From an uncultured Planctomycetota bacterium (GTDB lineage: Bacteria; Planctomycetota; Planctomycetia; Isosphaerales; Isosphaeraceae), in contig CAVTTN010000002.1 of the NCBI GenBank assembly GCA_963737655.1, positions 1,056,001 through 1,120,000 on the forward strand: a stretch of DNA of 64,000 bases, read 5' to 3'. Numbering within the stretch: the first letter of the stretch is position 1; each line of letters starts with the position of its first letter. The position numbers were made by a program, and so were the translations under genes. Of the stretch, positions 33,412 to 49,644 are shown piece after piece. The notes below the pieces were generated by a model. The model worked only from the letters and a program-made list of their open reading frames with translations, did no database searches and was not told the origin of the DNA.

Positions 33412-36212
33412 ATGGAACCCGCCCCGGACCGCCGATCGGCCGTCGTCTTCCTCATCCTCGTCACGATCGCCCGGCTCGCCGCGACCGGATCGACCCTCGC
33501 CGACGAGGCCAGGCCCTCGCCGGCCGACCTCGAATTCTTCGAGGCGAAGGTCCGCCCGGTCCTGGCCGAGCATTGCCTGTCCTGCCACGGGCCCGAGAAG
33601 CAGAAATCGGGGCTGAGGCTCGACTCGCGATCGGCGGCGCTGAAGGGCGGCGCGAGCGGGCCGGCGATCGCGCCCGGAGACCCCGGGAACAGCCCGCTCA
33701 TCGAGGCCGTCCGCCAGTCCGGCGACCTGAAGATGCCGCCCAAGGGGAAACTGCCCGAGGAGGCCGTCGCCGCCCTGACCGACTGGGTCAAACGGGGCGC
33801 CGCCTGGCCCGAAGCCAAGGCCGCGCCGACTCTCGATCCCAGGGCCACGCACTGGGCCTTCCAGCCCGTTCGCAACCCCGGGCCCCCGGCGGTGAAAGAC
33901 GCGGCCTGGCCCAAAGACCCGATCGACCGCTTCATCCTGGCGAGGCTCGAAGCGAAGGGGCTCTCGCCGTCGAGACCGGCCGACAAGGCCACGCTGATCC
34001 GCCGGGCCTCGTTCGACCTGGTCGGCCTGCCGCCGTCTCCCGAGGAGGTCGCCGGGTTCGTCCGGGACGACTCGCCCGACGCCTTCGCCAGGGTCGTCGA
34101 TCGCCTCCTCGCCTCGCCCCATTACGGCGAGCGCTGGGGCCGCCACTGGCTGGACGTGGCCCGATACGGCGACACGAAAGGCTATGTGTTCACCGAAGAC
34201 ATGGAATTCCACTGGGCCTACACCTACCGCGACTGGGTCGTCAAGGCCCTGAACGCCGACGTCCCGTATGACGAGTTCCTCGTCCGGCAGATCGCCGCCG
34301 ACCGGCTCGTCTCCGGCGAGGACCGCCGGGACCTCGCGGCCCTGGGGTTCCTGACCGTCGGCAGCCAGTTCATGAAGAATCGCCAGGACGTCCTGGATGA
34401 CCGGGTGGACGTCACGACTCGCGGACTGATGGCGCTGACGGTCTCCTGCGCCCGGTGCCACGACCACAAGTTCGACCCGATCCCCACGGCCGATTATTAC
34501 TCGCTGTACGGCGTGTTCGATTCGACGGTGGATCCGTCGGTCCCTCCCCTGTTCGAGCCTCCCCCGCAAACCGCGGAATACGAGGCGTTCTCTCGCGACC
34601 TGGCCGCGAGGGAGAAGGCCCTGGCCGCGTTCGTCGAGGAGAAGCACGAGGAGCTCGTCCGCCAGACCAAGACCCGGATGGCCGACTTCCTCCTGGCGGC
34701 CCAGGCCACCGGCCGGCAGCCGGATACCAACGAATTCATGCTGATCGCCGACAAGGGAGACCTCAACCCGGTGGTCCTCGGCCGGTGGCGGCGGTTCCTC
34801 AAGAAGACCTCGGAGGGCGCCGACCCGGTCTTCGGGCCGTGGCACGCCCTGGCGAAACTGCCGAAGGACGGATTCGCCGAGAAGGCGGCCTCGACGCTCT
34901 CGACCCTGGCCTCCGACCCGAAGACGCCGGTGAACCCGGTGATTCTCCGGGCCCTGACCGAGGCCCATCCGTCGTCGTTGGCCGAGGCGGCGGAAGTCTA
35001 CGGCCGGGTGCTCAACGCGAACGAGACGATCTGGCAGGATTACGCGAGGCGGGCGGTCCTGAACGGCTCGCCCGCGACCGCGCATCCAGACCCGGCCCGC
35101 GAGGAGCTCCGCCAGGTCTTCCACGGCCCCAACTCGCCGGTGTTCCTGCCCCCTCGGCCCAATCGCGGCGACCTGACCTTGCTGCCCGATCGCGCCTCCC
35201 AGGGCAAGTATCGGGAATTGCTCAAGGATCTGGAAGAGTTCCGGATCAAGGGCCCGGCGCGCCGGCCCGGGCCCTGGCGGTCGAGGACTCGCCCAACCCG
35301 GTCCAGCCGCGGATCTTCCGCCGGGGCAACCCCGGCAACCCCGGAGATGCCGTCCCTCGACGGTTCCTCGCCGTCCTCTCCACCGGCGAGCGGAAGCCGT
35401 TCCAGGACGGCTCCGGCCGCCTGGAGCTGGCCCGGGCGATCGCCTCGAAGGACAACCCTTTGACCGCCCGGGTCCTCGTCAACCGCTCATGGATGCACCT
35501 GATCGGCAGGCCGATCGTGGGGACGCCCGGCGATTTCGGCCTCCGCAGCGACCCGCCCTCGCACCCCGAATTGCTCGACCACCTGGCCTCCTCGTTGCTC
35601 GCCGACGGCTGGTCGCAGAAGCGGCTCCATCGCCGGATCATGCTCTCGGCCACCTATCAGCAGGCGAGCGATCCTCGACCCGAATGCGCGGCGGTCGATC
35701 CCGAAAACTCGCTCGTCTGGAGGGCGAACCGCAAGAGGCTGGACTTCGAGACGACCCGAGACGCGATCCTGAGCGTCTCGGGGAGGCTCGACCGCTCCCT
35801 CGGCGGCCCTCCGGTGCGCGACATCCTCACGCCGGGCGCCTCGCGACGGACGCTCTACGGCTATATCGACCGCCTGAACCTGCCGAACGTCTACCGGGCC
35901 TTCGACTACCCCGACCCGAACGCCTCGAACGCTAAACGAGACCTCACCACGGTCCCCCCGCAGGCCCTGTTCCTCATGAATCACCCGATCGCGATCGAGG
36001 CGGCGAAGGCCACGGCGAAGAGGCCCGAGATCGCCGCCGAGGCCGACGAGGCGAAAAGGGTCGAGCGGCTCTATCGCCTCCTCTACGGCCGAGATCCGTC
36101 GAGCGAGGAGGTCGCCCTGGCCCGCGAGTACCTCGCCGACCCGGCCGGCTCCTCGTGGGATCGGTACGTCCAGGGGCTTATGATTGCCAATGAGTTCGTC
36201 TTCATCGACTGA
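33412..36212 (+). CDS. Planctomycete cytochrome c + DUF1549 + DUF1553 protein (frameshift near 35260)
   Basis: CLSCHG, HWAFQP, YGERWGRHWLDVARY, CARCHDHKFDP, GSGRLELA, PPSHPELLD, PPQALFLMN. Confidence 0.93.
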
Positions 36213-36225
36213 GGAGGGCCGGGGC

Positions 36226-36477
36226 ATGACGACCGTGATCCTGGAGCACGACGCGAGCAAGCTGGCGAACCTGACCGGGGAGGTCGAGGTGTGCGACCCC
36301 TCGGGCCGCGTCCTCGGGTACTTCCGGCCGAACGTCCCCGATCGTTCGCTCTATGAGGGGATCGAAATCCCCGTGACCGAGGAAGAATTGCAGAGGTCCG
36401 AGCAGGAGATGCGCGAGGGGAAGGGATTCACCACGGCCCAGGTGCTCGACCATCTCAAGGGCCTGGAGGCGCGCTGA
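36226..36477 (+). CDS. Putative antitoxin, copy 1
   Basis: MTTVILEHD...VEVCDPSGRVLGYF...FTTAQVLDHL; TGATG-coupled to the next gene. Confidence 0.7.
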   Translation: MTTVILEHDASKLANLTGEVEVCDPSGRVLGYFRPNVPDRSLYEGIEIPVTEEELQRSEQEMREGKGFTTAQVLDHLKGLEAR

Positions 36478-36740
36478 TGGCCGAGGTTCTCTGGACGCCG
36501 TCGGCCCTGGACCGGCTCGCCACGATCTGGACCGAATCGTCCCGCCGAGAGGCCGTAAACGAGGCGGTGGCACGAATCGACCGGGAACTCGCGGCCGACC
36601 CCGCCCACTCCGGAGAATCTCGCGACGAGGGCCGACGCATCCTGATCGATCTGCCCCTCGGTGTGATCTTCCGACCCGGGCCGGGCGGGGCGTCGGTCAC
36701 CGTCCTCGCGGTCTGGGCAATCCGGCCCAGGAATCCCTGA
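36477..36740 (+). CDS. RelE/ParE-like toxin, copy 1
   Basis: VLWTPSALDRLATIW...IDRELAADP...GESR...V.VLAVW. Confidence 0.7.
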   Translation: MAEVLWTPSALDRLATIWTESSRREAVNEAVARIDRELAADPAHSGESRDEGRRILIDLPLGVIFRPGPGGASVTVLAVWAIRPRNP

Positions 36741-36765
36741 CGAACCTTCCGAGAAGGAGGTGAAC

Positions 36766-37020
36766 ATGACGACCGTGATCCTGGAGCACGACGCGAGCAA
36801 GCTGGCGAACCTGACCGGGGAGGTCGAGGTGTGCGACCCCTCGGGCCGGGTCCTCGGTTACTTCCGGCCGAACGTCCCCGATCGTTCGCTCTACGAGGGG
36901 ATCGAAGTCCCGTCCGACCTGGAGGAACGACTGGGTCGGGCCCGCGAGCAGAGGGAGGCCGGCGAGGGGCACACCCTGGCCGAAGTCCTGGCCCACCTCA
37001 CGAGCCTGGAGTCCCGGTGA
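36766..37020 (+). CDS. Putative antitoxin, copy 2
   Basis: First 47 aa identical to copy 1; RBS AAGGAGG. Confidence 0.7.
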   Translation: MTTVILEHDASKLANLTGEVEVCDPSGRVLGYFRPNVPDRSLYEGIEVPSDLEERLGRAREQREAGEGHTLAEVLAHLTSLESR

Positions 37021-37286
37021 TGGCGAGCGTCCTCTGGATGCCTGCGGCCCTGGGCCGATTGGCGGACGTCTGGACCTCCGCGCCCGATCGCCAGGCCGTC
37101 ACGGAAGCCGTCTCGCGGATCGATCGGGCCCTGGCCTCCGGGCCGACCGTCATCGGGGAGTCCCGAGATCGCGATGAGCGCATCGTGGTCGAGCCTCCCC
37201 TGGTCGCCGTCTTCGCCGTGGGCCCGGGCGGTCAGGCCGCCTTCGTCCTGGACGTCTGGGCGTCCGAGCGACGTCGTCCCCGCTGA
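37020..37286 (+). CDS. RelE/ParE-like toxin, copy 2
   Basis: MASVLWMPAALGRLADVW...IDRALASGP..IGESR; TGATG coupling. Confidence 0.7.
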   Translation: MASVLWMPAALGRLADVWTSAPDRQAVTEAVSRIDRALASGPTVIGESRDRDERIVVEPPLVAVFAVGPGGQAAFVLDVWASERRRPR

Positions 37287-38848: not shown

Positions 38849-39307
38849 TCTCACCCCCCACTCCCACAACCCGAACGCGGTCTTCTTGTCGATCGGGTGG
38901 CCGGTCTGCTTGAGGGTCCAGCCGATCTGGCCTCGGTGGTGGGACTCGTGCGAGATCAGGTAGCCGAGGAACGCCGTGGCGTGGGGCTTGAACCCCTTGA
39001 TCCTGCCCCCCTCGGCCACGGCCCGGCGGAGGAGGTTCGCCACGGCGCCGCCCGAGGCCGTCAGCGCCGATTCCAACTGGGCCTTGGTGCCGCCGACCTT
39101 CGTCTCGAGCTTCTCCAGCCCTTCGAGCAGTTCCGGCGCCGCGGCCTTCAGCCACATCAGCCGGACGTTGTGGACGTGGGCGAACTGGTCGAAGACCGTC
39201 CGGCATCTGGGCAGGGCCGCGCCCAGGCCGGCTTCGGGCACGGCGTCGAGCAGATATCGGTGGATCCGGTCGTGGATCTGCCAGGTCTCGATCAGGGGGT
39301 CATCCAT
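38846..39307 (-). CDS. DinB family protein
   Basis: FAHVHNVR and HESHHRGQI His motifs. Confidence 0.88.
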   Translation of the reverse strand: MDDPLIETWQIHDRIHRYLLDAVPEAGLGAALPRCRTVFDQFAHVHNVRLMWLKAAAPELLEGLEKLETKVGGTKAQLESALTASGGAVANLLRRAVAEGGRIKGFKPHATAFLGYLISHESHHRGQIGWTLKQTGHPIDKKTAFGLWEWGVR

Positions 39308-39335
39308 CGACGGCGCTCCCGGCTTCGGAACCAGC

Positions 39336-40514
39336 TCAGGTCTTCGCCCGGGACCGCAACGGGGAGCCGGCCCGGCTGGCGGCGGCGAGGATCGCGTCTC
39401 GGAACGCGAACGATCGGTCGCCCAGGGCGAGCTTCACCGTCTTGCCCCTCGAGGTGACGATCGCCAGGTTGTGCGAGTACGTCTTGCTGTTGCGGCTCTG
39501 GACCTTCTCGATGGAGACCTCGAGCGAGACGATCGAGGCCCAGGGAAGTCTCTTGGTCCAGCCCACGTGGTCGAGTTCGAGGCCGTCTTCCTCGATCCGC
39601 AGGCGATACCACGTGTTGAAGATGCTCACGAACCCGACGAGGGCCAGGACCGGCCCGATGTAGCGCATGGCCATCGCCCGGCCGTCGTTGCGGCGATTGG
39701 CGCCGTTGTTCGGAGCGGGGGCGTTCGGGTCGTAGAGGAGCCAGCTCGCGGTGGTCAGCCCGACGAACAGGAGGGTGGTGAAGACCGCCCCGGCCACCGC
39801 CTTTTTCCTCGGGAAGACGATCGGGGCCGTCTTCGAGCCGCCGATCGGCCCGAAGTCGTCGGCGAGGGTCGGGACGGGGATCGCCGCCGAGGCCGGCGAG
39901 CCGGCGAGGATGAGCGCCTCCCAGTCCAGCCGTTGTCGGAGCCGTTCGAGGAATTCGTCGAACTTGCCGTACTGGTTGCTGATCTTCAAGGTCGGCAGGC
40001 CCGGCCGCCCTTCCAGGACGAGCCGGCCCCAGGCGTCCTGGAGGCGGACGGCGGCGATGTCCTCCCAGCCGAGGAATTCCTCGGGCCGACGGCCCTTGCG
40101 GCGGCTGATCCCGCGATCCTCGACCGTGAACCGCTCCGACATCCTGCCGATCACCCACGACAGCCCGAAGGCCAGGACGAGCAGGACGAGGCCCAGGAGC
40201 CACGGCCCCCAGCCGAGCGACGAGTCCAGGATCGCCCCCACCACGAACCCGCCGCCCACGACGACCAGGACCAGGACGAGGCCCCAGAGGATCGCCTTTT
40301 GCCAGGTCGGCGTGCCGATCGTCAGGACCGGCGCGGGCTTCGCCTCGATCGGAGGCCGGGCGGCCCGGCTCGCCGTGGGAGCTGGCTCGGATCGCGAGGG
40401 GGGCGTCGCCGATTCCGTCTTCGGCAGAACCCCCCGGCAGACGGGGCATCGCGAGAGCCCGGCCGGGACTCGGGTGGCGCACGCCGGGTCGGGACAGATC
40501 ACGTAGTCGGGCAT
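39336..40514 (-). CDS. Membrane protein with N-terminal zinc ribbon and two PH-like repeats
   Basis: CPDPAC..CPVC, four TM helices, and two G+....W..I repeats. Confidence 0.65.
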   Translation of the reverse strand: MPDYVICPDPACATRVPAGLSRCPVCRGVLPKTESATPPSRSEPAPTASRAARPPIEAKPAPVLTIGTPTWQKAILWGLVLVLVVVGGGFVVGAILDSSLGWGPWLLGLVLLVLAFGLSWVIGRMSERFTVEDRGISRRKGRRPEEFLGWEDIAAVRLQDAWGRLVLEGRPGLPTLKISNQYGKFDEFLERLRQRLDWEALILAGSPASAAIPVPTLADDFGPIGGSKTAPIVFPRKKAVAGAVFTTLLFVGLTTASWLLYDPNAPAPNNGANRRNDGRAMAMRYIGPVLALVGFVSIFNTWYRLRIEEDGLELDHVGWTKRLPWASIVSLEVSIEKVQSRNSKTYSHNLAIVTSRGKTVKLALGDRSFAFRDAILAAASRAGSPLRSRAKT

Positions 40515-40575
40515 GGGGCGCGGTCCTCGGGGGGCAGGCGACGCCCCTTGATGGGACTCGACGGGACCGGCCGAG

Positions 40576-41510
40576 TCAAGCCCCGGGGCGGGCCGTCAGG
40601 CCCGATGGCTCGCCCGACCTCCCCGGCCTCGTCGCCTTGCCCAGCCAGAGCCTCGCCGAGATCGCCCACGACGCCGCCATGTAGAAGGCCGGGTAGATCG
40701 TCGAGACCAGGACGAGGTTTCTCGCCAGGCCCTCGGGCACGCGATGGCCGGGGGAACCGTCGGAGGGCAGGAGCGCCAGGACCGCGACCAGGAGGGCCGC
40801 CCAGGCCGCCCCTCCGACGTTGCTGACCTTGTTCAGCAGACCCGGGCGCGACGACGGATAGAGATAGCGGCTCGGGACGAACGTGAGGACCGACAGCACG
40901 AGGACGACCGCCAGGGAGGCCCAGGGCGGCAGGTCCAGGACGTAAAGGTAGAACGCCACGATGTTCCAGAGCGACGGGAAGCCGAGGAAATAGCCGTCGT
41001 CGGTCTTGATCGACGTCTGGCAGAACCCGTAGGCGCTGGCCATCAGGGGGACGATCAGCCACGCCTCCTGCCCGGCGGGCAGGATCGCGGCCTTCCAGAT
41101 CAGCAGCAGGGGCAGGCAGGTGTAGGTCAGCCAGTCCACCAGGTCGTCGAGCCTCCGGCCGTCGAAGCCGGGGAGGACTTCCTTGATCCGGACCCGGCGG
41201 GCGAGGGTGCCGTCGGTGGCGTCGATGACCGTGGCGACGATCATCAGGGCGAACGACCCTCGGAACGCCCAGGGGCCGCCTTCGATCAGGAGCCAGGCCA
41301 TCCCGGAGGCGGCCACGAGGCCCAGGGCCGTATAGAAATGGACGAGCCAGGCCAGGACGCGGACGGTCGAGCCCCGGGCGCCCTCGGGGCGTTGCGGACC
41401 CTCTTGTCCTTGGTCCGGAGGATCACCCAGCGGGCCACGCGGTTGCGGGCGAGCTTGTCGCCGACGGTCCGCCATCGGGCGTTGCGGTCGCGGGCGCGTT
41501 TCTCGGTCAT
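40576..41510 (-). CDS. pcs: Phosphatidylcholine synthase-like CDP-alcohol phosphatidyltransferase (probable frameshift near 41380; start uncertain)
   Basis: AWLVHFYTALG, DATDGTLARR...PGFDGRRLDDLVDWLTY, SAYGF, KTDDGYFLGFPSLWN. ATG at 41510 overlaps the permease stop (ATGA). Confidence 0.82.
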
Positions 41511-42991
41511 CGTCGGGGTTCCCGTGGAGGGCGGCCGATCCGTCTTCGGCGGTCGCGGGCGATCAGGAGGCCGAGCACCACCAGGGCCGCCGTGGCCAGG
41601 GGGGCGGCGAAGCGCTGGTGCCAGGCCGGACCGTAGACCTCGGCTCGGGGCCAGCCGGTGTTGATCACGATGGCCACGGCCCACCCGACCGCGACGACGT
41701 TGACCGCCGTGCCGAACCGGCCGAGGCGGAAGAACGAGGGGGACTCCGGCCAGCCCCGGCTCAGGCGGCAGGCCAGCAGGGACGCCGACACCAGAAAATA
41801 CGCCAGGTCAATCCACACGACCGAGACCGTCGCGATCAGGACCACGACCTTCGGGTCCTGGAAATTCATCAGCAAACCCAGGGCCGCCAGGCCCCCGACG
41901 ACGATCGCCGGGGCCACCGGCGAACCCGAGCCGCCGACCCGACCCAGCCGGCCCGAGCCGGGCAGCAGGCCGTCCCTGGCCAGGGCGAAGACCAAGCGAA
42001 CGGCCCCGGCGTGGACCGTCAGGGCGCAGGAGACGATCGCCACCGCCACGACGACCAGGAACGCCGAGCCGAGGCCGGGCCCCAGGGCGGTCCGGACGAT
42101 CAGGGTCAGCCCGCCTCCGGCCAGGTCCGGGTCCGCCGGGTCGTCGGCCGCCATCAGGGCCGAGAGGATCAGCAAGCCGCCGAGCACGGCCGCCGAACCC
42201 AGGGCGAGGACGATCGCTCGGGGCGACTTCTTTCGAGGCGAGACCGTCTCCTCGGCGAGCGAGCCGGCCGTCTCGAATCCGTACAGCACGTACGACGCCG
42301 TCAAGGCCGCCGCGAGATACGCCCCCGGGCCGATCGGCCCGCCGCCCCGGGTGGAGGCCGCGCTCAGGGCCTCCATCGGCCCTCTCCGGGCGTGGGCGAA
42401 CAGGAGGGCCACCAGGGCGACGGCCCCCAGCAGCTCGACCATCACGCCGACATTGTTGATCGTCGCCAGGAGCCGGACCCCCCGTGCGTTCAGGAACGTC
42501 GTGAGGCCGATCAGGACGCAGCCCAGGAGCACCGCGTTCTTCGCCTCGGAGGCCGGGTCGCCGGCCGTCCCCACGACCTGGAATCCCGACCACAGGGCCG
42601 GCAGGACCGCCTGCAAGGCCATCGACACCGCCGCCAGGGAGACGACCGAGCCGGCCATCGAGATCCAGCCGGCCATCCAGCCCACCGACGGCGAGCCGAC
42701 CCGGCGGGCCCACTGATACACGCTCCCGCACAGCGGGTAGCGGGCCGCCAGCTCGGCGAAACCCAGGGCCAGGCTCATCTGCCCGAGCGCCACCACCGGC
42801 CACGTCCAGAACACGCCCGGACCGGCGAAGGCCAGGCCCAGGCCGAGCATCTGGAACAGCCCGGTCAAGATCGAGATGAACGCGAACCCCGCGGCGAACG
42901 ACGAGAACCCGCCGAGCGACCGGCCCAGGCTCTGGGCATAGCCGAACCCGGCAAGGTCGCGCTCATCTCCTGGAGTCTCGGCGGTGGTCAC
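41507..42991 (-). CDS. APC-superfamily permease, amino acid/choline transporter (ACT)-like
   Basis: DLAGFGYAQSLGRSLGGFSSFAAGFAFISILTG, FAELAARYPLCGSVYQW, YGFETAGSLAEET; about 12 TM helices. Confidence 0.88.
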   Translation of the reverse strand: MTTAETPGDERDLAGFGYAQSLGRSLGGFSSFAAGFAFISILTGLFQMLGLGLAFAGPGVFWTWPVVALGQMSLALGFAELAARYPLCGSVYQWARRVGSPSVGWMAGWISMAGSVVSLAAVSMALQAVLPALWSGFQVVGTAGDPASEAKNAVLLGCVLIGLTTFLNARGVRLLATINNVGVMVELLGAVALVALLFAHARRGPMEALSAASTRGGGPIGPGAYLAAALTASYVLYGFETAGSLAEETVSPRKKSPRAIVLALGSAAVLGGLLILSALMAADDPADPDLAGGGLTLIVRTALGPGLGSAFLVVVAVAIVSCALTVHAGAVRLVFALARDGLLPGSGRLGRVGGSGSPVAPAIVVGGLAALGLLMNFQDPKVVVLIATVSVVWIDLAYFLVSASLLACRLSRGWPESPSFFRLGRFGTAVNVVAVGWAVAIVINTGWPRAEVYGPAWHQRFAAPLATAALVVLGLLIARDRRRRIGRPPREPRR

Positions 42992-43026
42992 GGCGCGCGA
43001 TGCCCGAAGGGAAGGTGGTTCCTCAC

Positions 43027-43099
43027 TCCCGTAGGGTGCATGAAATGCACCATCCTGGATTGCATCAAGGGGATGGTGCATTTCATGCACCCTACGGGA
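43027..43099. repeat. GTAG-type REP doublet (GTAGGGTGCATGAAATGCACC), family A
   Basis: 29-nt perfect inverted arms; other copies at 46876, 54865, 54891 and 57836. Confidence 0.9.
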
Positions 43100-43135
43100 T
43101 TCCGTCGCCCTCTCCTCGGGCGAATACGTCCTGTC

Positions 43136-43942
43136 TCAGGCCCGCCTGGTCGCCTGATAGATGCCCCACTTCATGTCGCCGGCCTGGCAGAACCGGACCT
43201 TCATGGCCCAGCGATCGACCAGGTAATTCAGGTCGGCCTCGGAGAACGAGCCGAGGAAGTCCTCGCGATTGGCCTCGAGCCGGGCGGGCTCGGACTCGAG
43301 GATCTCGACGAACCGAGGGGTGGCGTCCTCGACGACCACGTCGACGAACCCGGCGTCTTCCAGGAGCTTGCCGTACTCGCTCGGCTCGACGAGGTGATAG
43401 CCGGTGCTCCGGGCATACGCCTCGAACTCGGCCGAGCCCGGCTTCTTGCCGCGGGCGTAGTCGGTGATCACCAGCTTGCCACCGTCGCTCAGGAGGCTGT
43501 GGAGCTTGGCGAACAGCCTCTTCTTGTCGTGGATGTGCATCAGGGCGTCGCGCGACCAGATCAGGTCGAACGGCTCGTCGAAGTCGGTCTCCAAAACGTC
43601 GGCCAGGAGGAACTCGACGCGATCGGAGACGCCCGACTCGGGCAGGGCGTCCAGGGCCAGGTCGGTCATCTCGGGGGAGAGGTCCACGCCGGTGACCGTC
43701 GCCCCGTACTCCCGGGCGAGATGGAACGCCGCGCCGCCGATCCCGCTGCCGACGTCCAGGACCCTCATCCCCGGCCGGAGCGCCCCGCCCAGGAGCGAGC
43801 AGAGGTACAGGGTCGTCTCGCGCCCTCCGGTGCTGATGTAGCCCTTCCCGAAGATCTTCTCGTACCGAAGGATGCTCGTCCGGCTGTACTGTCCGTTGTT
43901 GTCGTAAGAGCGGGACGCGGAGGATCGCGAGAGGGTGGTCAT
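43136..43942 (-). CDS. Phosphoethanolamine N-methyltransferase-like SAM methyltransferase (single domain, 268 aa)
   Basis: QYSRTSILRYEKIFGKGYISTGG, LDVGSGIGG, FDLIWSRDALMH, LVITDY and W..K......MKWG match the phosphobase methyltransferase pattern. Confidence 0.88.
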   Translation of the reverse strand: MTTLSRSSASRSYDNNGQYSRTSILRYEKIFGKGYISTGGRETTLYLCSLLGGALRPGMRVLDVGSGIGGAAFHLAREYGATVTGVDLSPEMTDLALDALPESGVSDRVEFLLADVLETDFDEPFDLIWSRDALMHIHDKKRLFAKLHSLLSDGGKLVITDYARGKKPGSAEFEAYARSTGYHLVEPSEYGKLLEDAGFVDVVVEDATPRFVEILESEPARLEANREDFLGSFSEADLNYLVDRWAMKVRFCQAGDMKWGIYQATRRA

Positions 43943-44103
43943 GTCGATGTCGAACCCTTGGAGATGAGCGTGATCGAGGAGGACGGGCGGGGCGGGGCAG
44001 CAAAGCAAAGAGGCGGACGGGCCGCTCGGCCCTGGCCGGGAAGCGCGGGCCGGGGGGATCCCGTGGAGATCCCGAGTGGGGCCCGTGAACGTCGGGGATG
44101 ATT

Positions 44104-45027
44104 CTAATCGGATCGACCCGCCCCGTCCAACCCCCAGGCGGTCTTTTCTGGACCCCCGAGCGAGGCCCGGGCCGCCCGGTGCCTCTCCAGGCTCGCCTCG
44201 GCGTACCCGCGATAGTCGAAATCCAGGTCCGAGGCCACCGTCTGGACGATCGACCAGAGCGCCTCCCTCAGCAGCGAAGACGCCTTGAAGATCCGCAATT
44301 CGACCAGGTCGGCCGGGTCGAAATGGCCCCGATAGGCCGTCAGGAGGAGCCGGTCGAGGTCCTCCCCGTATTCGCAGTTCGCCGAGATCCCCGCCAGGTC
44401 GAAGAACGGGTGGCCGATCCCTCCGTATTCCCAATCGACGATCCAGACGCGCCGGCCGTCGTCCAGGACGTTGGCCGGCAGCATGTCGTTGTGACACAAC
44501 GTCGGGACGAACGGACGGACCCGCCGGGAGAGCCGGCGGTCGTCTTCCAAAAGGGCGTCGATCCCCTCCGGCAGCCTCGCCCCGAGCCTCCGGGACGTCT
44601 CGGCATACGTCCGGTTGGCCTGAAACGGGGAGAAATAGAACATCTCGCCCCGGAGCCCGTCCCACCCGTCATGGAGTGCCCGGAGCAATCGGGCCAGCCG
44701 GGGAATGAACTCCGGGTCACGCCCGGATTCGGGCGTCAAGACGCGCGATTCGACGTAACGGGTCACCAGCCAACCCTTTTCGGCGAAAACGATCGGCGGC
44801 GCCACGCCCAGGGCCTCGGCCGCCCGCCCGCAGGCCAGCTCGTTGCGGCGGTCCACCCCGAGCCAGGGCAAATCGGCGCCGATCCGGGCCACAAAAGACC
44901 CGAACTCGTCATCCACCCGGTAGTTGCGGTTGGTGATCCCGCCCGGTAAGGGCCGGATCGTGACCGACCCTCGCCAGATCCCCAGCGACCCGATGCGATC
45001 GACCTCCGAGGCGTCCTCTCCGGCCAT
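44104..45027 (-). CDS. Choline/ethanolamine kinase family protein
   Basis: GGITNRNY, Brenner motif CHNDMLPAN and choline-kinase motif IVDWEYGG...FFDLA. Confidence 0.88.
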   Translation of the reverse strand: MAGEDASEVDRIGSLGIWRGSVTIRPLPGGITNRNYRVDDEFGSFVARIGADLPWLGVDRRNELACGRAAEALGVAPPIVFAEKGWLVTRYVESRVLTPESGRDPEFIPRLARLLRALHDGWDGLRGEMFYFSPFQANRTYAETSRRLGARLPEGIDALLEDDRRLSRRVRPFVPTLCHNDMLPANVLDDGRRVWIVDWEYGGIGHPFFDLAGISANCEYGEDLDRLLLTAYRGHFDPADLVELRIFKASSLLREALWSIVQTVASDLDFDYRGYAEASLERHRAARASLGGPEKTAWGLDGAGRSD

Positions 45028-45319
45028 CACGCCCTCCCGAAAGGGCCGATTCTCGCCTCAAGGACCGTCACCGGCAAGCCTTCGTCCGTAATCTTCGAAG
45101 GGGGATCGCACGCCCCGATCGGCTCGGACCCGCCTCCCCGGCCCGAAACCCCTGGCATAAAATGACCTTGCGCCCCAAACAATGCTGGAATCGCCGGAAA
45201 TATTGCGTGCAAGCATTGATGCACGCTTGACATCACGCAGTCACTCCCCCTATGCTTGGAATGACATCGGACAGGCCCGCGAGGGCCGATCGATTCGAAC
45301 CGGATCTCTGCTCACAGTC

Positions 45320-46390
45320 ATGGCCACGGCGATCCCCACCTTCGAGCCTCACCCCTGGTTGCGAGGCGGCCATCGGCAGACGATCGTGGGCCGTTACCTG
45401 CTGGGAGGAGAGGCCGCGCCGGCCTCGGAGGATCGGGTCCTGGAGCTTCCCGACGGCGACCGCCTGAGGGTGGCCGACTCGATCCCCTCGGGGTGGCTGG
45501 CGGGCGACCCGGCGGCGGTCGTGATCCACGGCCTGGCCGGGGACGCGACCTCGCCGTATGTGGTCCGTCTGGCGGCGAAGTTAACCAGGCGGGGGGTCCG
45601 GGTCGCCCGGATGAACCTGCGAGGGGCGGGGGCGGGCTTCGGCCTGGCTCGCAAGACGTATCATGGCGGCCTGACCGGGGACGTCCGGGCGGTGGTCGAG
45701 CGGCTCTCGGCCGACAGCCCGGGGTCGCCGATCGGCCTGGTGGGGTTCTCCCTGGGAGGGAATCTCGCGCTGAAGCTCGCGGCCGAGGCGGCGACCGAGC
45801 CGGTCTCGGGGCTGGATTGCGTGGTCTCGGCCAACGCGCCGCTGGACCTGGCGGCATGCTGCCGGAACATCCGCCGGCCGTCTCGACGGATTTACGACCG
45901 GAATTTCGTGGGGTCGCTCCGTACAGAGATCCGGCGCCTCCACGAGAGGTTCCCCGAGCTCGGCCCGGTGGACCTCGGGGCGATCCGCTCGGTCTTCGAC
46001 TTCGATGAGCTGTACACGGCTCCCCGGCACGGGTTTGCCTCGGCCGAGGAGTATTATGCCCGGTCCAGCGCCGGGCCGGTCTTGCCTCAAATCCGGGTGC
46101 CCGGGCTGGTTGTGCATTCTCGGGACGACCCGTTCATCCCGTCGGACACGTACGACGGACTCCTTTTTTCGGACGCGTTGGCACTGGAATTGATCCCTAC
46201 GGGAGGACATCTCGGCTACATCAGCCGTGCCCGTTGGGAGGGGGATCGCCGCTGGCTGGAGACGAGGCTGGCCGTTTGGCTGGCCGACCGATGGGCGGCG
46301 AGACTTCACGACCGGCCCGATCGCCCCGAGCGGTCGGCCCTTGGACCCCGACACGGAGGGCCGAACGCCCATGCCCAGCAATCGATATAA
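45320..46390 (+). CDS. YheT-family alpha/beta hydrolase
   Basis: GGHRQTI, HGLAG, GFSLGGN, DDPFI, GGHLGY. Confidence 0.9.
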   Translation: MATAIPTFEPHPWLRGGHRQTIVGRYLLGGEAAPASEDRVLELPDGDRLRVADSIPSGWLAGDPAAVVIHGLAGDATSPYVVRLAAKLTRRGVRVARMNLRGAGAGFGLARKTYHGGLTGDVRAVVERLSADSPGSPIGLVGFSLGGNLALKLAAEAATEPVSGLDCVVSANAPLDLAACCRNIRRPSRRIYDRNFVGSLRTEIRRLHERFPELGPVDLGAIRSVFDFDELYTAPRHGFASAEEYYARSSAGPVLPQIRVPGLVVHSRDDPFIPSDTYDGLLFSDALALELIPTGGHLGYISRARWEGDRRWLETRLAVWLADRWAARLHDRPDRPERSALGPRHGGPNAHAQQSI

Positions 46391-46718
46391 CAAGTACCGA
46401 GCGGCCGTGGAAGTCCTCCAGAAGGGGCGGGACGCGGTCGTCGATGCCATCGCCGACGACGTCCTGGATCAGGGGGACGACCTGATCGACGGCGGCTACA
46501 TGTTCCACGAGTTCCTGGAGACCCAGGGGACCCGGCTCCACTTCCTCACCCTGCTGATCTCGCAGCTCGAGCAGTCGGCCGAGACCGTGGAGGAGGTCGA
46601 GGCCCCCAGCTTGCTGCCGCCCCTGCCGCCCGAGCCCGCCAAGAAGCCGAGGAAGCCCCGGGCCAGCAAGCCCAAGAAGCTCCAGACCTCCGCCGAAGGC
46701 AAGACCGAAGACGCCTGA
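46371..46718 (+). CDS. Hypothetical protein
   Basis: RBS GGAGG, host-like codon usage, MPSNRYNKYRAAVEVLQKGRD. Confidence 0.7.
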   Translation: MPSNRYNKYRAAVEVLQKGRDAVVDAIADDVLDQGDDLIDGGYMFHEFLETQGTRLHFLTLLISQLEQSAETVEEVEAPSLLPPLPPEPAKKPRKPRASKPKKLQTSAEGKTEDA

Positions 46719-46937
46719 TCCGCGATCGCGATCGCGAGATCAACCTGGACCAACCGGGCCGAAGCGCTTCGGCCCGCTTTCCGATAGGCGATGGCCGGCG
46801 ACGGGTCGAGGGCGAGAGCCCCGGCCGGTCCCCGGCCATCGGCCATTCCCGGGCCGATCCCCGCGTCCCGACCCCGAAGGGTGCATGAAAGGCACCCTCT
46901 TCGATCCGCGATCGCCCGGAATCCATCCTCCCGAGGG

Positions 46938-47838
46938 TCACCCCCTCGCCTGCCGGCTCAGGAGGTAGCTCATCAGCGCCTTGTCGAACGGCATCCCGGT
47001 GTGGATCGGGACGTAGTCGATCCTCGCGCCGAGGCATTCCTTGCGATAGTCCTCGCGGAACTTGGCCACCTCGTCGAGGTAGTCGGCCTTGATCCCCTCG
47101 GCATCGACCATCAGCTTCTCATGGGTCTCGTTGTCCTCCAGCTCCAGCATCCCCTCGAACGGGAAGAGGGCCTCGGCCTCGTCCAGGATGTGGAAGACGA
47201 TGATGTCGTGGCCCGAGTGGCGGAGGCGATGGAACGCCTTGAGGATCGGCTCGGTGTCCCCCAGCAAGTCGCTGAAGAGCATGACGAGGCTCCGGTGCCG
47301 GATCATCCCGGCGACCTGATGGAGGCTCTTCGCCACGTTCGTCTCGCCCGACGGCGAGAGCTTCGCCAGCAGCGACAGGATGTTCCCGAGCTGGGACCTC
47401 TTGCTCCGGGGCGGCAGGCTCTGCCGGACCTGCTGATCGAAGGCGACCAGGCCCACCGGGTCCTGCTGATGGATCATCAAATAGCCCAGGGCCGCCGCCA
47501 GGCTCACCCCGTACTCGAACTTCGTGAGCCTCCTGGCGATAGGTGTAGCCCATGCTCCCGGAGAGGTCCATCACGAGGTAGCCCGTGAGGTTCGTCTCGG
47601 CCTGGAATTTCTTGATGTAGAACCGATCGGTCTTGGCGAACACGTTCCAGTCGATGTCGGCGATGTTGTCCCCGGGCGTGTACTTGCGGTGCTCGGAGAA
47701 CTCGACGGAGAACCCGTGGAACGGGCTGGCATGCAGCCCCGAGATGAACCCCTCGACGATGAATTTCGCCCGGAGGTCCAGCCGCGACACCTGGCGGATG
47801 ACCTCGGGCTTCAGGTACTTCTCGGCGGGTCCGGCCAA
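46938..47838 (-). CDS. DUF58 (vWA-like) protein (frameshift near 47530)
   Basis: GLHASPFHGFSVEFSEHRKY.PGD, IDWNV, MDLSGSM, then LFSDL in the second frame. Confidence 0.92.
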
Positions 47839-47861: not shown

Positions 47862-48438
47862 CTAGAAGACCTCGGCCAGGGGGATGGCCAGGCCGGGCAA
47901 AAGGGGCGACTCATACACCTCGTCGACCGTCAGGACGCGCTCATCATACCCCTCGGGGCGATGCGTGAGCACGGTCACGATCTTGCGGAACCGATCGACG
48001 ATCACGTATTCGCGAATTCCCAACGCATGATACTCGGCGCAGCTTCTCGATGTAATCCCGGTCGCGCGACTCTCGCCCCGGGCTGACGATCTCGAACATG
48101 AGTTCGGGCGGGTTCTTCGGGACGTCGAACTCCGAGGCGCAAAGATAGACGCCGAGATCGCCCACGCGGTCGCCATCCTCGGGCCGGACCCACGCCTGCC
48201 CGACGACCTCCTCGATGATCCCGGGATGGGCGAACTTGAAGAGGATCAGCCGATCGCGCCACGGGTTCGAAGCCCGGATATGTCCGCCACCTTCCGGCGC
48301 CATGGCCAGGAGCCTCCCCTTCACTCGCTCATAGGTCCACGGCTCGGCGAAGTCGGCGTCGGCGAACTCTTCGGAGGAGACGAGCCGGCCGTGGTCCTCG
48401 GGGCCGAGCTTCAGGAGGCGTGGTGCGTCGGTCGCCAT
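47862..48438 (-). CDS. Uma2 family protein, copy C (extra base at ~48041)
   Basis: MATDAPRLLKLGPEDHG..., FEIVSPG; AEYHALGIREY resumes in the next frame. Confidence 0.8.
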
Positions 48439-48453
48439 CGTTCGGGCTCCTCG

Positions 48454-49041
48454 TCAGGCGAACGCCCCGGCCCAGTCGATCGCCAGGCCCGGCAGGAGCG
48501 GCGAGGTGTAGGCTTCGCCCTCGGGGAGCTCCCGCTCGTCATACCCTTCGGGGCGGTGGGTGAGCACCGTGACCTTCCGCTGATGGGGATCGACGATCAC
48601 ATACTCGCGAATTCCCAACGCATGGTACTCGGCGCGCTTCTCGATGTAATCCCGGTCGCGCGACTCCCGCCCCGGGCTGACGATCTCGAACATGAGGTCG
48701 GGGACCCGGTCGGGGATTTTTGGGACGGGGCGGGTCGTGCTCAGGTAGACGCCGATGTCGCCGATCCGGTCCGTTCCTCCCTGGATCCTCACCCAGGACG
48801 AGGGCACGACCCAATCGATCGAGTCCGGATGGGCGTGCCAGTAGACAGCCAGATTGAGCCACCAGGGGCTGGTTCCGGCGATGTGAAGCTCCCCATCCGG
48901 CGGCATGACGACCAGCCTCCCTCGGACGCGTTCATACTTCCACGGCTCGGCGAAGTCGGCCTCGGCGAACTCTTCGGAGGAGACGAGCCGGCCGTGGTCC
49001 TCGGGGCCGAGCTTCAGGAGGCGTGGTGCGTCGGTCGCCAT
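48454..49041 (-). CDS. Uma2 family protein, copy B
   Basis: YERVRG, DRIGDIGVY, PDLMFEIVSPG, DYIEKRAEY, SPLLPGL. Confidence 0.92.
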   Translation of the reverse strand: MATDAPRLLKLGPEDHGRLVSSEEFAEADFAEPWKYERVRGRLVVMPPDGELHIAGTSPWWLNLAVYWHAHPDSIDWVVPSSWVRIQGGTDRIGDIGVYLSTTRPVPKIPDRVPDLMFEIVSPGRESRDRDYIEKRAEYHALGIREYVIVDPHQRKVTVLTHRPEGYDERELPEGEAYTSPLLPGLAIDWAGAFA

Positions 49042-49056
49042 CGTTCGGGCTCCTCG

Positions 49057-49644
49057 TCAGGCGAACGCCCCGGCCAGGTCGATCGCCAGCCCCGGCAGGA
49101 GCGGCGAGGCGTAGGTCTCGCCCTCGTGGAGCTCCCGCTCGTCATACCCTTCGGGGCGGTGGGTGAGCACCGTGACCTTCCTCTGGTGGGGATCGACGAT
49201 CACGTACTCGCGGATGCCCAACGCATGGTACTCGGCGCGCTTCTCGATGTAATCCCGGTCGCGCGACTCCCGCCCCGGGCTGACGATCTCGAACATGAGG
49301 TCGGGAATGCGGTCGGGGATTTTTGGGACGGGGCGGGTCGTGCTCAGGTAGACGCCGATGTCGCCAATCCGGTCGGTCCCGTCCGAAACCCGGACCCATG
49401 ACGCCGGGACCAACCAATCGATCCGATCGGGCCTCTGCTCCCAGTAGGCGAAGAGTTTGCGCCACCAGGGGCTGGTCCCCGAGATGTGAAGCTCCCCATC
49501 CGGCGGCATGACGACCAGCCTCCCTCGGACGCGTTCATACTTCCACGGCTCGGCGAAGTCGGCGTCGGCGAAATCGTCGGAGGAGACGAGCCGGCCGTGG
49601 TCCTCGGGGCCGAGCTTCAGGAGGCGTGGTGCGTCGGTCGCCAT
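49057..49644 (-). CDS. Uma2 family protein, copy A
   Basis: Same motifs as copy B; 603-nt period. Confidence 0.92.
   Translation of the reverse strand: MATDAPRLLKLGPEDHGRLVSSDDFADADFAEPWKYERVRGRLVVMPPDGELHISGTSPWWRKLFAYWEQRPDRIDWLVPASWVRVSDGTDRIGDIGVYLSTTRPVPKIPDRIPDLMFEIVSPGRESRDRDYIEKRAEYHALGIREYVIVDPHQRKVTVLTHRPEGYDERELHEGETYASPLLPGLAIDLAGAFA

Follow-up and report, generated by a model that had tools for sequence, protein, structure and literature searches.

A methyltransferase of the phosphoethanolamine methyltransferase family linked to a Pcs-like gene in the Isosphaeraceae, and a candidate phosphobase route to phosphatidylcholine

Reviews describe three ways in which bacteria make phosphatidylcholine (PC), namely by PmtA, by Pcs, which needs choline from outside, and by acylation, and they call phosphobase methylation unique to plants, nematodes, and protozoa. 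We analyzed a four-gene cluster on a 64,000-nt stretch of an Isosphaeraceae genome (assembly GCA_963737655.1, contig CAVTTN010000002.1, positions 1,056,001-1,120,000; genome 87.7% complete). We refer to this whole stretch as the window. The cluster encodes a choline/ethanolamine kinase-family protein, a single-domain enzyme of the phosphoethanolamine methyltransferase (PMT) family, a permease, and a Pcs-like CDP-alcohol phosphotransferase. It is real and family-wide, and it brings known enzyme families together in an undescribed combination.

Each of the closest described systems resembles the cluster in part. The phosphobase pathway of plants, nematodes, and Plasmodium has the same methyltransferase fold, the same Tyr/His/Asp catalytic set, most of the same phosphate ligands, and frequently an ethanolamine/choline kinase as partner, whereas here the enzyme is a single-domain bacterial protein with Thr in place of Arg179 and an additional Arg244, is coupled to Pcs, and comes with no CDP-choline step that we could find. 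With the bacterial Pcs pathway the cluster shares the exact Pcs motif, a transporter partner, and closest NCBIfam models that are all Pcs. In contrast, known Pcs uses free choline and depends on an exogenous supply of it (PMC10434233), and the protein here is linked to a head-group methyltransferase and scores below every curated Pcs cut-off. PmtA and OlsG carry out S-adenosylmethionine (SAM)-dependent triple N-methylation to a trimethylated membrane lipid, as is predicted here, but they belong to a different sequence family, the OlsG-like gene of this genome lies at a separate locus, and in most carriers of the methyltransferase we found no phosphatidylserine decarboxylase (Psd) to supply phosphatidylethanolamine (PE). 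The Lic-1 pathway (LicA/B/C/D) also has a LicA-like kinase and a transporter, whereas no LicC-type gene was found in the window's genome and the kinase lacks two of the quaternary-amine contacts of LicA. Finally, related genomes contain a paralogue whose best matches (TIGR01140 and 1lc5) are to CobD, the threonine-phosphate decarboxylase, a homologue of which has been proposed in S. multivorans and may form ethanolamine phosphate there (PMC4585668); the paralogue differs in lying outside the cobalamin cluster, and it is absent from the window's genome.

All four genes are on the minus strand, in the order kinase (44104..45027), methyltransferase (43136..43942), permease (41507..42991), and Pcs-like gene (40576..41510). 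This is the arrangement given in the preliminary description, and the motifs quoted there (CHND, DWEY, QY, SRDA..H, TDY, and W..K...WG) are all present in the translations. The best families in Pfam and NCBIfam are, respectively, Choline_kinase/APH, class I methyltransferase, AA_permease_2, and Pcs.

The survey covered 121 genomes of the window's family and a sample of 400 from the phylum's other families, the latter at an E-value of 1e-30. The methyltransferase gene was found in 77 of the 121 family genomes (28 of the 47 high-quality ones) and in none of the 400 others, and the named relatives that have it belong to the Isosphaeraceae, Aquisphaera insulae (WP_165232183.1) and Paludisphaera borealis (WP_076345837.1) among them. 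Of the 77 carriers, 75 have Pcs, which lies at most 2.6 kb from the methyltransferase in 62; in the other 13 the two genes are not within that distance, some of these cases being contig breaks. The permease adjoins the methyltransferase in 56 carriers and is a neighbor of Pcs in 70 of 75 genomes. A kinase orthologue occurs in 45 of the 77 carriers and is adjacent in 24, and the full four-gene order is found in 16. These synteny counts were made by coordinates, with kinase matches below 45% identity and permease matches near 30% identity set aside as paralogues. A kinase-free methyltransferase-permease-Pcs core occurs in 22 genomes, and five genomes that are 97-99% complete have the permease and Pcs but lack the methyltransferase, the kinase, and Psd.

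The conserved core is methyltransferase-permease-Pcs. Because the permease-Pcs pair occurs alone in five nearly complete genomes, it is most simply seen as a stand-alone module for choline uptake and PC synthesis, to which the methyltransferase is usually joined on the upstream side. The four-gene linear unit first proposed is not what is conserved, given its rarity in full, the many carriers that lack the kinase or have it elsewhere, and the solitary permease-Pcs pairs. We also noted a contig in a bin labelled Alphaproteobacteria (L011:6254-9731) on which CobD-like, methyltransferase, and Pcs genes are arranged as in the family, either by mis-binning or by transfer, and a 99% complete genome in which the methyltransferase match (G460:C1:1148462-1149244) is interrupted by a stop and separated from Pcs, which itself has no permease, so that this methyltransferase locus is possibly decaying.

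The methyltransferase (METHYLTRANSFERASE, 268 aa) has PMTs as its top 11 PDB matches, with E-values from 8e-68 to 4e-41 (Arabidopsis PMT 8e-68, nematode PMT-2 2e-47, Plasmodium PMTs 7e-45 to 4e-41), followed by the next family at 4e-19 and by sarcosine/dimethylglycine methyltransferase at 2e-12. Its AlphaFold model (pLDDT 87.6) has TM scores of 0.82-0.91 to PMTs and 0.73 to sarcosine/dimethylglycine methyltransferase in Foldseek. In a FastTree phylogeny of 143 sequences, which left out PDB sequences, PmtA, and OlsG and does not give the direction of transfer, the Isosphaeraceae proteins form a clade (0.99) nested in a QYH group (0.93) that also contains named plant, algal, oomycete, and animal PMT domains; outside this group are a subclade of another signature, which includes a fusion to an aminoethylphosphonate aminotransferase, and a distant outgroup. 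The protein is 41-48% identical to the C-terminal domain of named eukaryotic PMTs and has no hydrophobic segment. From these sequence and model comparisons, its identity as a true PMT-family enzyme is well supported. It groups with PMTs in the tree, apart from sarcosine- and phosphonate-type enzymes, and sequence, fold, tree, and synteny together uphold the proposal of a PMT-type enzyme linked to Pcs, as opposed to one of PmtA, OlsG, or sarcosine type.

The label "eukaryote-type" originally given to this methylation route is too narrow because single-domain PMT-like enzymes exist in other prokaryotes, some of them adjoining the same kinase family. Bacterial and archaeal clusters also turn up among feature look-alikes (leads only), and the PMT family therefore extends beyond eukaryotes. 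A search for fusions among longer proteins found only eukaryote-type di-domain PMTs, which is weak evidence of absence. Three further observations concern the wider family. One 553-aa protein (P0126) has two C-terminal-type PMT domains in tandem. The subclade containing P0221 and P0209 is PMT-like with the signature R18/S27/Y136 and includes fusions to aminoethylphosphonate aminotransferase and to a cytidylyltransferase; its members are probable phosphonate N-methyltransferases. At three loci in other bacteria (L203, L208, and L213), canonical-Arg single-domain PMTs adjoin a choline-kinase-family gene together with dimethylglycine-dehydrogenase-like, flavin oxidoreductase, or betaine ABC genes, possibly a module leading from phosphobase to betaine.

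In Plasmodium falciparum PMT (PfPMT), catalysis is by Tyr19 and His132, and the phosphobase site consists of Tyr27, Tyr160, Tyr175, Tyr181, Arg179, and Lys247 (PMC6705855). We mapped the equivalent residues through alignments with the P. vivax and Arabidopsis enzymes and counted them in the 119 closest homologues, drawn from the best 120 of 668, and in 41 genome loci. Q18, Y19, Y27, D132, H136, Y162, Y176, Y182, and K248 are identical in every one of these sequences; D132 is the Asp of the SRD motif, to which we presume a catalytic role. The position of PfPMT Arg179 is Thr180 in 119/119 homologues and 41/41 loci, and Arg244 is likewise present in all of them. The phosphate-binding Arg had been thought to be shifted within YARSTGY; it is instead replaced by Thr180, and Arg244 is the candidate substitute. 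In long eukaryote-type proteins the pattern is the reverse, with Arg180 in 50/50 and Arg244 in 0/49 scorable sequences. Among 150 representatives obtained by 50% clustering, which are related sequences and not independent events, 131 could be scored for Arg/Lys: 71 carry it at 180 alone, 44 at 244 alone, 2 at both positions, and 14 at neither. The Arg244 swap occurs in other single-domain lineages as well. In the AlphaFold model Y240, R244, and K248 are at i, i+4, and i+8 of one helix, with Arg244 one turn before the conserved Lys. Because 180 and 244 alternate in the family and because of this spacing, we infer that Arg244 takes over from Arg179 and that the anion site would be retained.

The Pcs-like protein matches five NCBIfam Pcs models (1e-41 to 8e-29) and PssA at only 4e-5; its 101-143 bits are below the cut-offs of 300-440 of these lineage-specific Pcs models. 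The Pcs motif DGx2ARx8Px3Gx3Dx3D (PMC7867332) is exact in the window protein and in 119/119 homologues, and the protein has no solved relative by sequence. The neighboring APC-superfamily permease, of about 494 aa from a presumed GTG start at 42991, matches AA_permease_2 at 1e-39 and, both below cut-off, TIGR03428 (1.8e-137), the model for a urea-carboxylase-system permease, and TIGR00907 (1.3e-41), which we take to be the family containing Hnm1. It is a putative importer of choline or related amino alcohols.

The permease and Pcs genes had been described as ATGA-coupled. The overlap exists at 41507-41510, but in this assembly its ATG does not share the reading frame of the Pcs core and opens a 74-codon frame closed by a stop. 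The same N-terminus is in frame with the core in three relatives (L001, L002, and L316) and in 22/22 of the closest database homologues among the matches listed (by eye; 6 by a strict pattern), and therefore we place a one-base frameshift between about 41410 and 41365. This is probably an assembly error, as 6 of 46 test loci of the window's genome matched in more than one frame, some of which may be repeats. Of the 27 loci examined, 12 have an Atg22-like MFS transporter gene that lies downstream of Pcs and converges on it (e.g. L144:1778-3169); this gene is absent from the window.

Psd was detected in 28 of the 121 family genomes and was not found in 55 of the 77 carriers, including the window's genome, some of these genomes being incomplete. 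Because most carriers are without it, the usual PE-methylation route looks unavailable. The major lipids of S. acidiphila are trimethylornithine lipid (TMOL), PC, phosphatidylglycerol, and phosphatidic acid (PMC12493201). The window's genome probably makes TMOL too, since its genes at G000:C2:2699054-2701643 share 64% identity with a pair from L182 that is OlsG-like and OlsH-like by resemblance; in L182 and L183 this pair is directly upstream of the cobalamin CobD gene. No LicC/CCT-type cytidylyltransferase was seen among 13 nucleotidyltransferase matches in the 87.7% complete genome (9 scanned, 4 judged from N-termini), and for this reason, together with the exact Pcs motif, the CDP-choline (Kennedy) route is unlikely. 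Since Pcs needs free choline and no LicC/CCT-type enzyme was seen, phosphocholine must lose its phosphate, a required step that was skipped in the earlier scheme leading from phosphocholine directly to lipid.

Two kinds of gene could supply a phosphobase. The first is the kinase (307 aa, LicA/APH fold), which matches Pfam Choline_kinase (1.4e-12) and APH and, among solved structures, 3dxq (9e-26) and LicA 4r77 (6e-16). In 30/30 loci it keeps the catalytic Asp176 and the Tyr197, Trp251, and Tyr268 of LicA as D181, Y201, W258, and Y275, and Thr29 is T/S32. LicA Trp254 and Glu213, which contact the quaternary amine (PMC4364537), are missing, position 261 being Ile, Val, or Leu in 30/30 loci and position 217 being Asn in 25/30 and never Glu. 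These changes fit a preference for less methylated amines but do not show it, and we propose that the protein may act as a (methyl)ethanolamine kinase. The guanitoxin-pathway kinase GntI was rejected as an identity (180 bits against a cut-off of 357, and no such cluster among the scanned neighbors). Choline-kinase-family genes of any kind occur in 56 genomes, 53 of which have the methyltransferase, and the other three are 78-89% complete. Outside the Isosphaeraceae, a gene of the same kinase family adjoins a canonical-Arg PMT gene in four unrelated metagenome loci, and in one other metagenome locus such a PMT gene adjoins a HisC/CobD-like gene.

The second partner, present in other genomes, is a pyridoxal phosphate (PLP) enzyme closest to CobD (TIGR01140 3e-66, below cut-off; 1lc5 8e-35). 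Copies at least 66% identical to the query are found in 14 genomes, all of them methyltransferase carriers; the gene is head-to-head with the methyltransferase in nine and adjoins the kinase on a short contig in one, and these loci span five genera. Nine genomes have two CobD-like copies, and the second copy that we examined, in G507, sits by cobQ/cbiB. A more distant copy (51-59%) adjoins cobQ in the window's genome and cobQ/cbiB in L183 and is, where context shows it, the cobalamin enzyme; we rejected the window genome's own CobD as a cluster partner on account of this position. The closer paralogue was not found in the window's genome, and many carriers lack any CobD-like gene. That these two different partners would both yield a phosphorylated amino alcohol is the main argument from gene context for a phosphobase substrate.

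Our preferred reading, which we think moderately probable, is that PC is made from a phosphobase by way of phosphocholine and then choline, with no PE intermediate. The permease and Pcs would import choline-type amino alcohols and join free choline to CDP-diacylglycerol, as their families and their stand-alone occurrence suggest. The methyltransferase would be an add-on that N-methylates soluble phosphoethanolamine, or its mono- or dimethyl forms, to phosphocholine with SAM. Judging from gene context, the phosphobase may arise in this window when the kinase phosphorylates (methyl)ethanolamine that has been imported, and in other genera when the CobD-like PLP enzyme decarboxylates O-phosphoserine; a phosphatase encoded elsewhere would free choline for Pcs, as the chemistry requires.

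Several points weigh against this reading. The neighborhoods examined show no conserved phosphatase within the cluster or close to it, and the PHOSPHO1/PECP1-type family (PF06888) occurs in 7 of the 121 genomes, only one of them a carrier. We set aside two finds that do not recur, each made at one locus: a gene for a purple acid phosphatase that lies downstream of Pcs, and a HAD gene close to a paralogue of the kinase. The window's genome has five generic HAD matches. In 18 of the 77 carriers we found no choline-kinase-family gene and no CobD paralogue; 11 of the 18 are 91-99% complete (one of these 11 has a stop inside the methyltransferase match). In five kinase-free carriers that we examined, the top CobD-like matches were rejected as a phosphobase source because they are HisC by operon context; one of the five has a group II PLP decarboxylase, and all five have other APH-fold kinases. 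It is the C-terminal (PMT2-type) domain that the enzyme resembles, and the nematode version of this domain acts on the mono- and dimethyl forms alone and does not carry out the first step (PMC10269165). With no N-terminal-type PMT domain found in the window's genome either, the first methylation is uncertain. The place of Arg244 in the pocket is deduced from helix spacing in the model, and a kinase adjoining Pcs could compete with it for choline. Lastly, related genomes are not independent, and the co-occurrence counts are not a statistical test. A more ambitious version of the preferred reading holds that Isosphaeraceae PC is made fully de novo, by a duplicated CobD or the kinase, a PMT with a relocated Arg that methylates three times, dephosphorylation, and Pcs, bypassing both PE and CDP-choline by a route found in no other group, and that Arg244-type single-domain PMTs are an old prokaryotic branch. 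We put this forward as tentative and, taken whole, somewhat doubtful.

The missing phosphatase, the carriers without a phosphobase source, and the doubt about the first methylation keep alive two alternatives, in which methylation takes place on the lipid or on the free amine. In the first, which we judge unlikely, the Pcs-like enzyme would join (methyl)ethanolamine to CDP-diacylglycerol, and the PMT-fold enzyme would produce PC by methylating PE, monomethyl-PE, dimethyl-PE, or a glycerophospho-diester. This would need neither kinase nor phosphatase and so accounts for the 22 kinase-free cores as well as for the missing phosphatase, and without Arg179 the phosphate site could admit a diester. 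However, all other phosphobase-site residues are invariant, the methyltransferase has no membrane-like segment, the same Arg swap is seen in other single-domain lineages, and the kinase and the CobD paralogue, which would yield soluble phosphobases, occur almost only in methyltransferase genomes.

If the enzyme were instead a free amino-alcohol N-methyltransferase that turns (methyl)ethanolamine into choline and feeds Pcs directly, with the kinase serving storage or catabolism, the chemistry of the three-gene core would be at its simplest. The uniform Thr at the canonical Arg position and the 18 carriers without a known source are both in keeping with this. We nevertheless hold it to be quite improbable, because five of the six phosphate-site residues are kept, Arg244 is present nearly wherever 180 is lost, and both the head-to-head CobD paralogue and the distribution of the kinase would be left unexplained.

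It has little in its favor, we believe, that phosphocholine is made for some other use (glycine betaine, surface decoration, or storage) and that the link to permease and Pcs reflects only a shared choline metabolism. The PMT and kinase genes of other bacteria do adjoin dimethylglycine-dehydrogenase-like and betaine ABC genes, and 13 carriers have the methyltransferase and Pcs but not within 2.6 kb of each other (some through contig breaks), but 62 of the 77 keep the two side by side, and no LicC-type cytidylyltransferase was seen among the nucleotidyltransferases examined in the window's genome. We regard as very improbable indeed a different anionic amine substrate (2-aminoethylphosphonate, or aminopropanol phosphate, the normal CobD product) leading to a phosphono- or methylcholine-type lipid, since, even though a sister subclade with Arg244 includes the P0221 fusion and the adjacent decarboxylase is a CobD paralogue, that subclade has its own signature and branches apart, no PEP mutase scored above cut-off in the window's genome, and many carriers are without any CobD-like gene.

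Other features lie in and around the cluster. A minus-strand sigma-70-like site (44101..44129; a consensus match only, 9/12) sits within the 3' end of the kinase gene and precedes the methyltransferase; it is one of 2 found by the consensus scan against 0.2 expected, and is a possible promoter of the three-gene core. Between methyltransferase and permease is a perfect palindrome (43027..43099) with 29-bp arms and a 15-nt loop, a REP-like dispersed repeat that matches about 208 places in the genome, with a second copy in the window at 46873-46905; it belongs to a genome-wide repeat and is outside the system. Rfam gave no match within 39000-47500 of the window. A co-oriented 392-aa ORF with a weak bacterial PH domain begins 61 bp downstream of Pcs (39336-40514) and had no match at any of the retrieved loci. 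Farther away are three near-identical tandem ORFs (47944-49644) that begin MATDAPRLLK and are Uma2-like by resemblance, the first apparently broken, and a small two-gene unit in two tandem copies (36184-37286) that is toxin-antitoxin-like in look.

The gene names are not new, because automatic annotation already calls many homologues phosphoethanolamine N-methyltransferase and phosphatidylcholine synthase. In the literature open to us, which leaves most subscription journals uncovered and whose supplements could mention them, we found no account of a bacterial PMT operon or of this family's PC synthesis genes, and the accessible parts of PMC7828035 and PMC6356786 contain nothing on the pathway, the linkage, the CobD paralogue, or the arginine swap. 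We found no earlier description of any of these four. Cultured carriers exist for study, including Aquisphaera insulae and Paludisphaera borealis, and a knockout has reportedly been made in S. acidiphila. The Arg244-type enzyme is a natural active-site variant of a family that is an antiparasitic target. If the preferred reading is true, the Isosphaeraceae would have an undescribed bacterial route to PC in which the head group is built on a soluble phosphorylated precursor, and this may answer where PC comes from in peat and soil planctomycetes that have PC but not PE among their main lipids.

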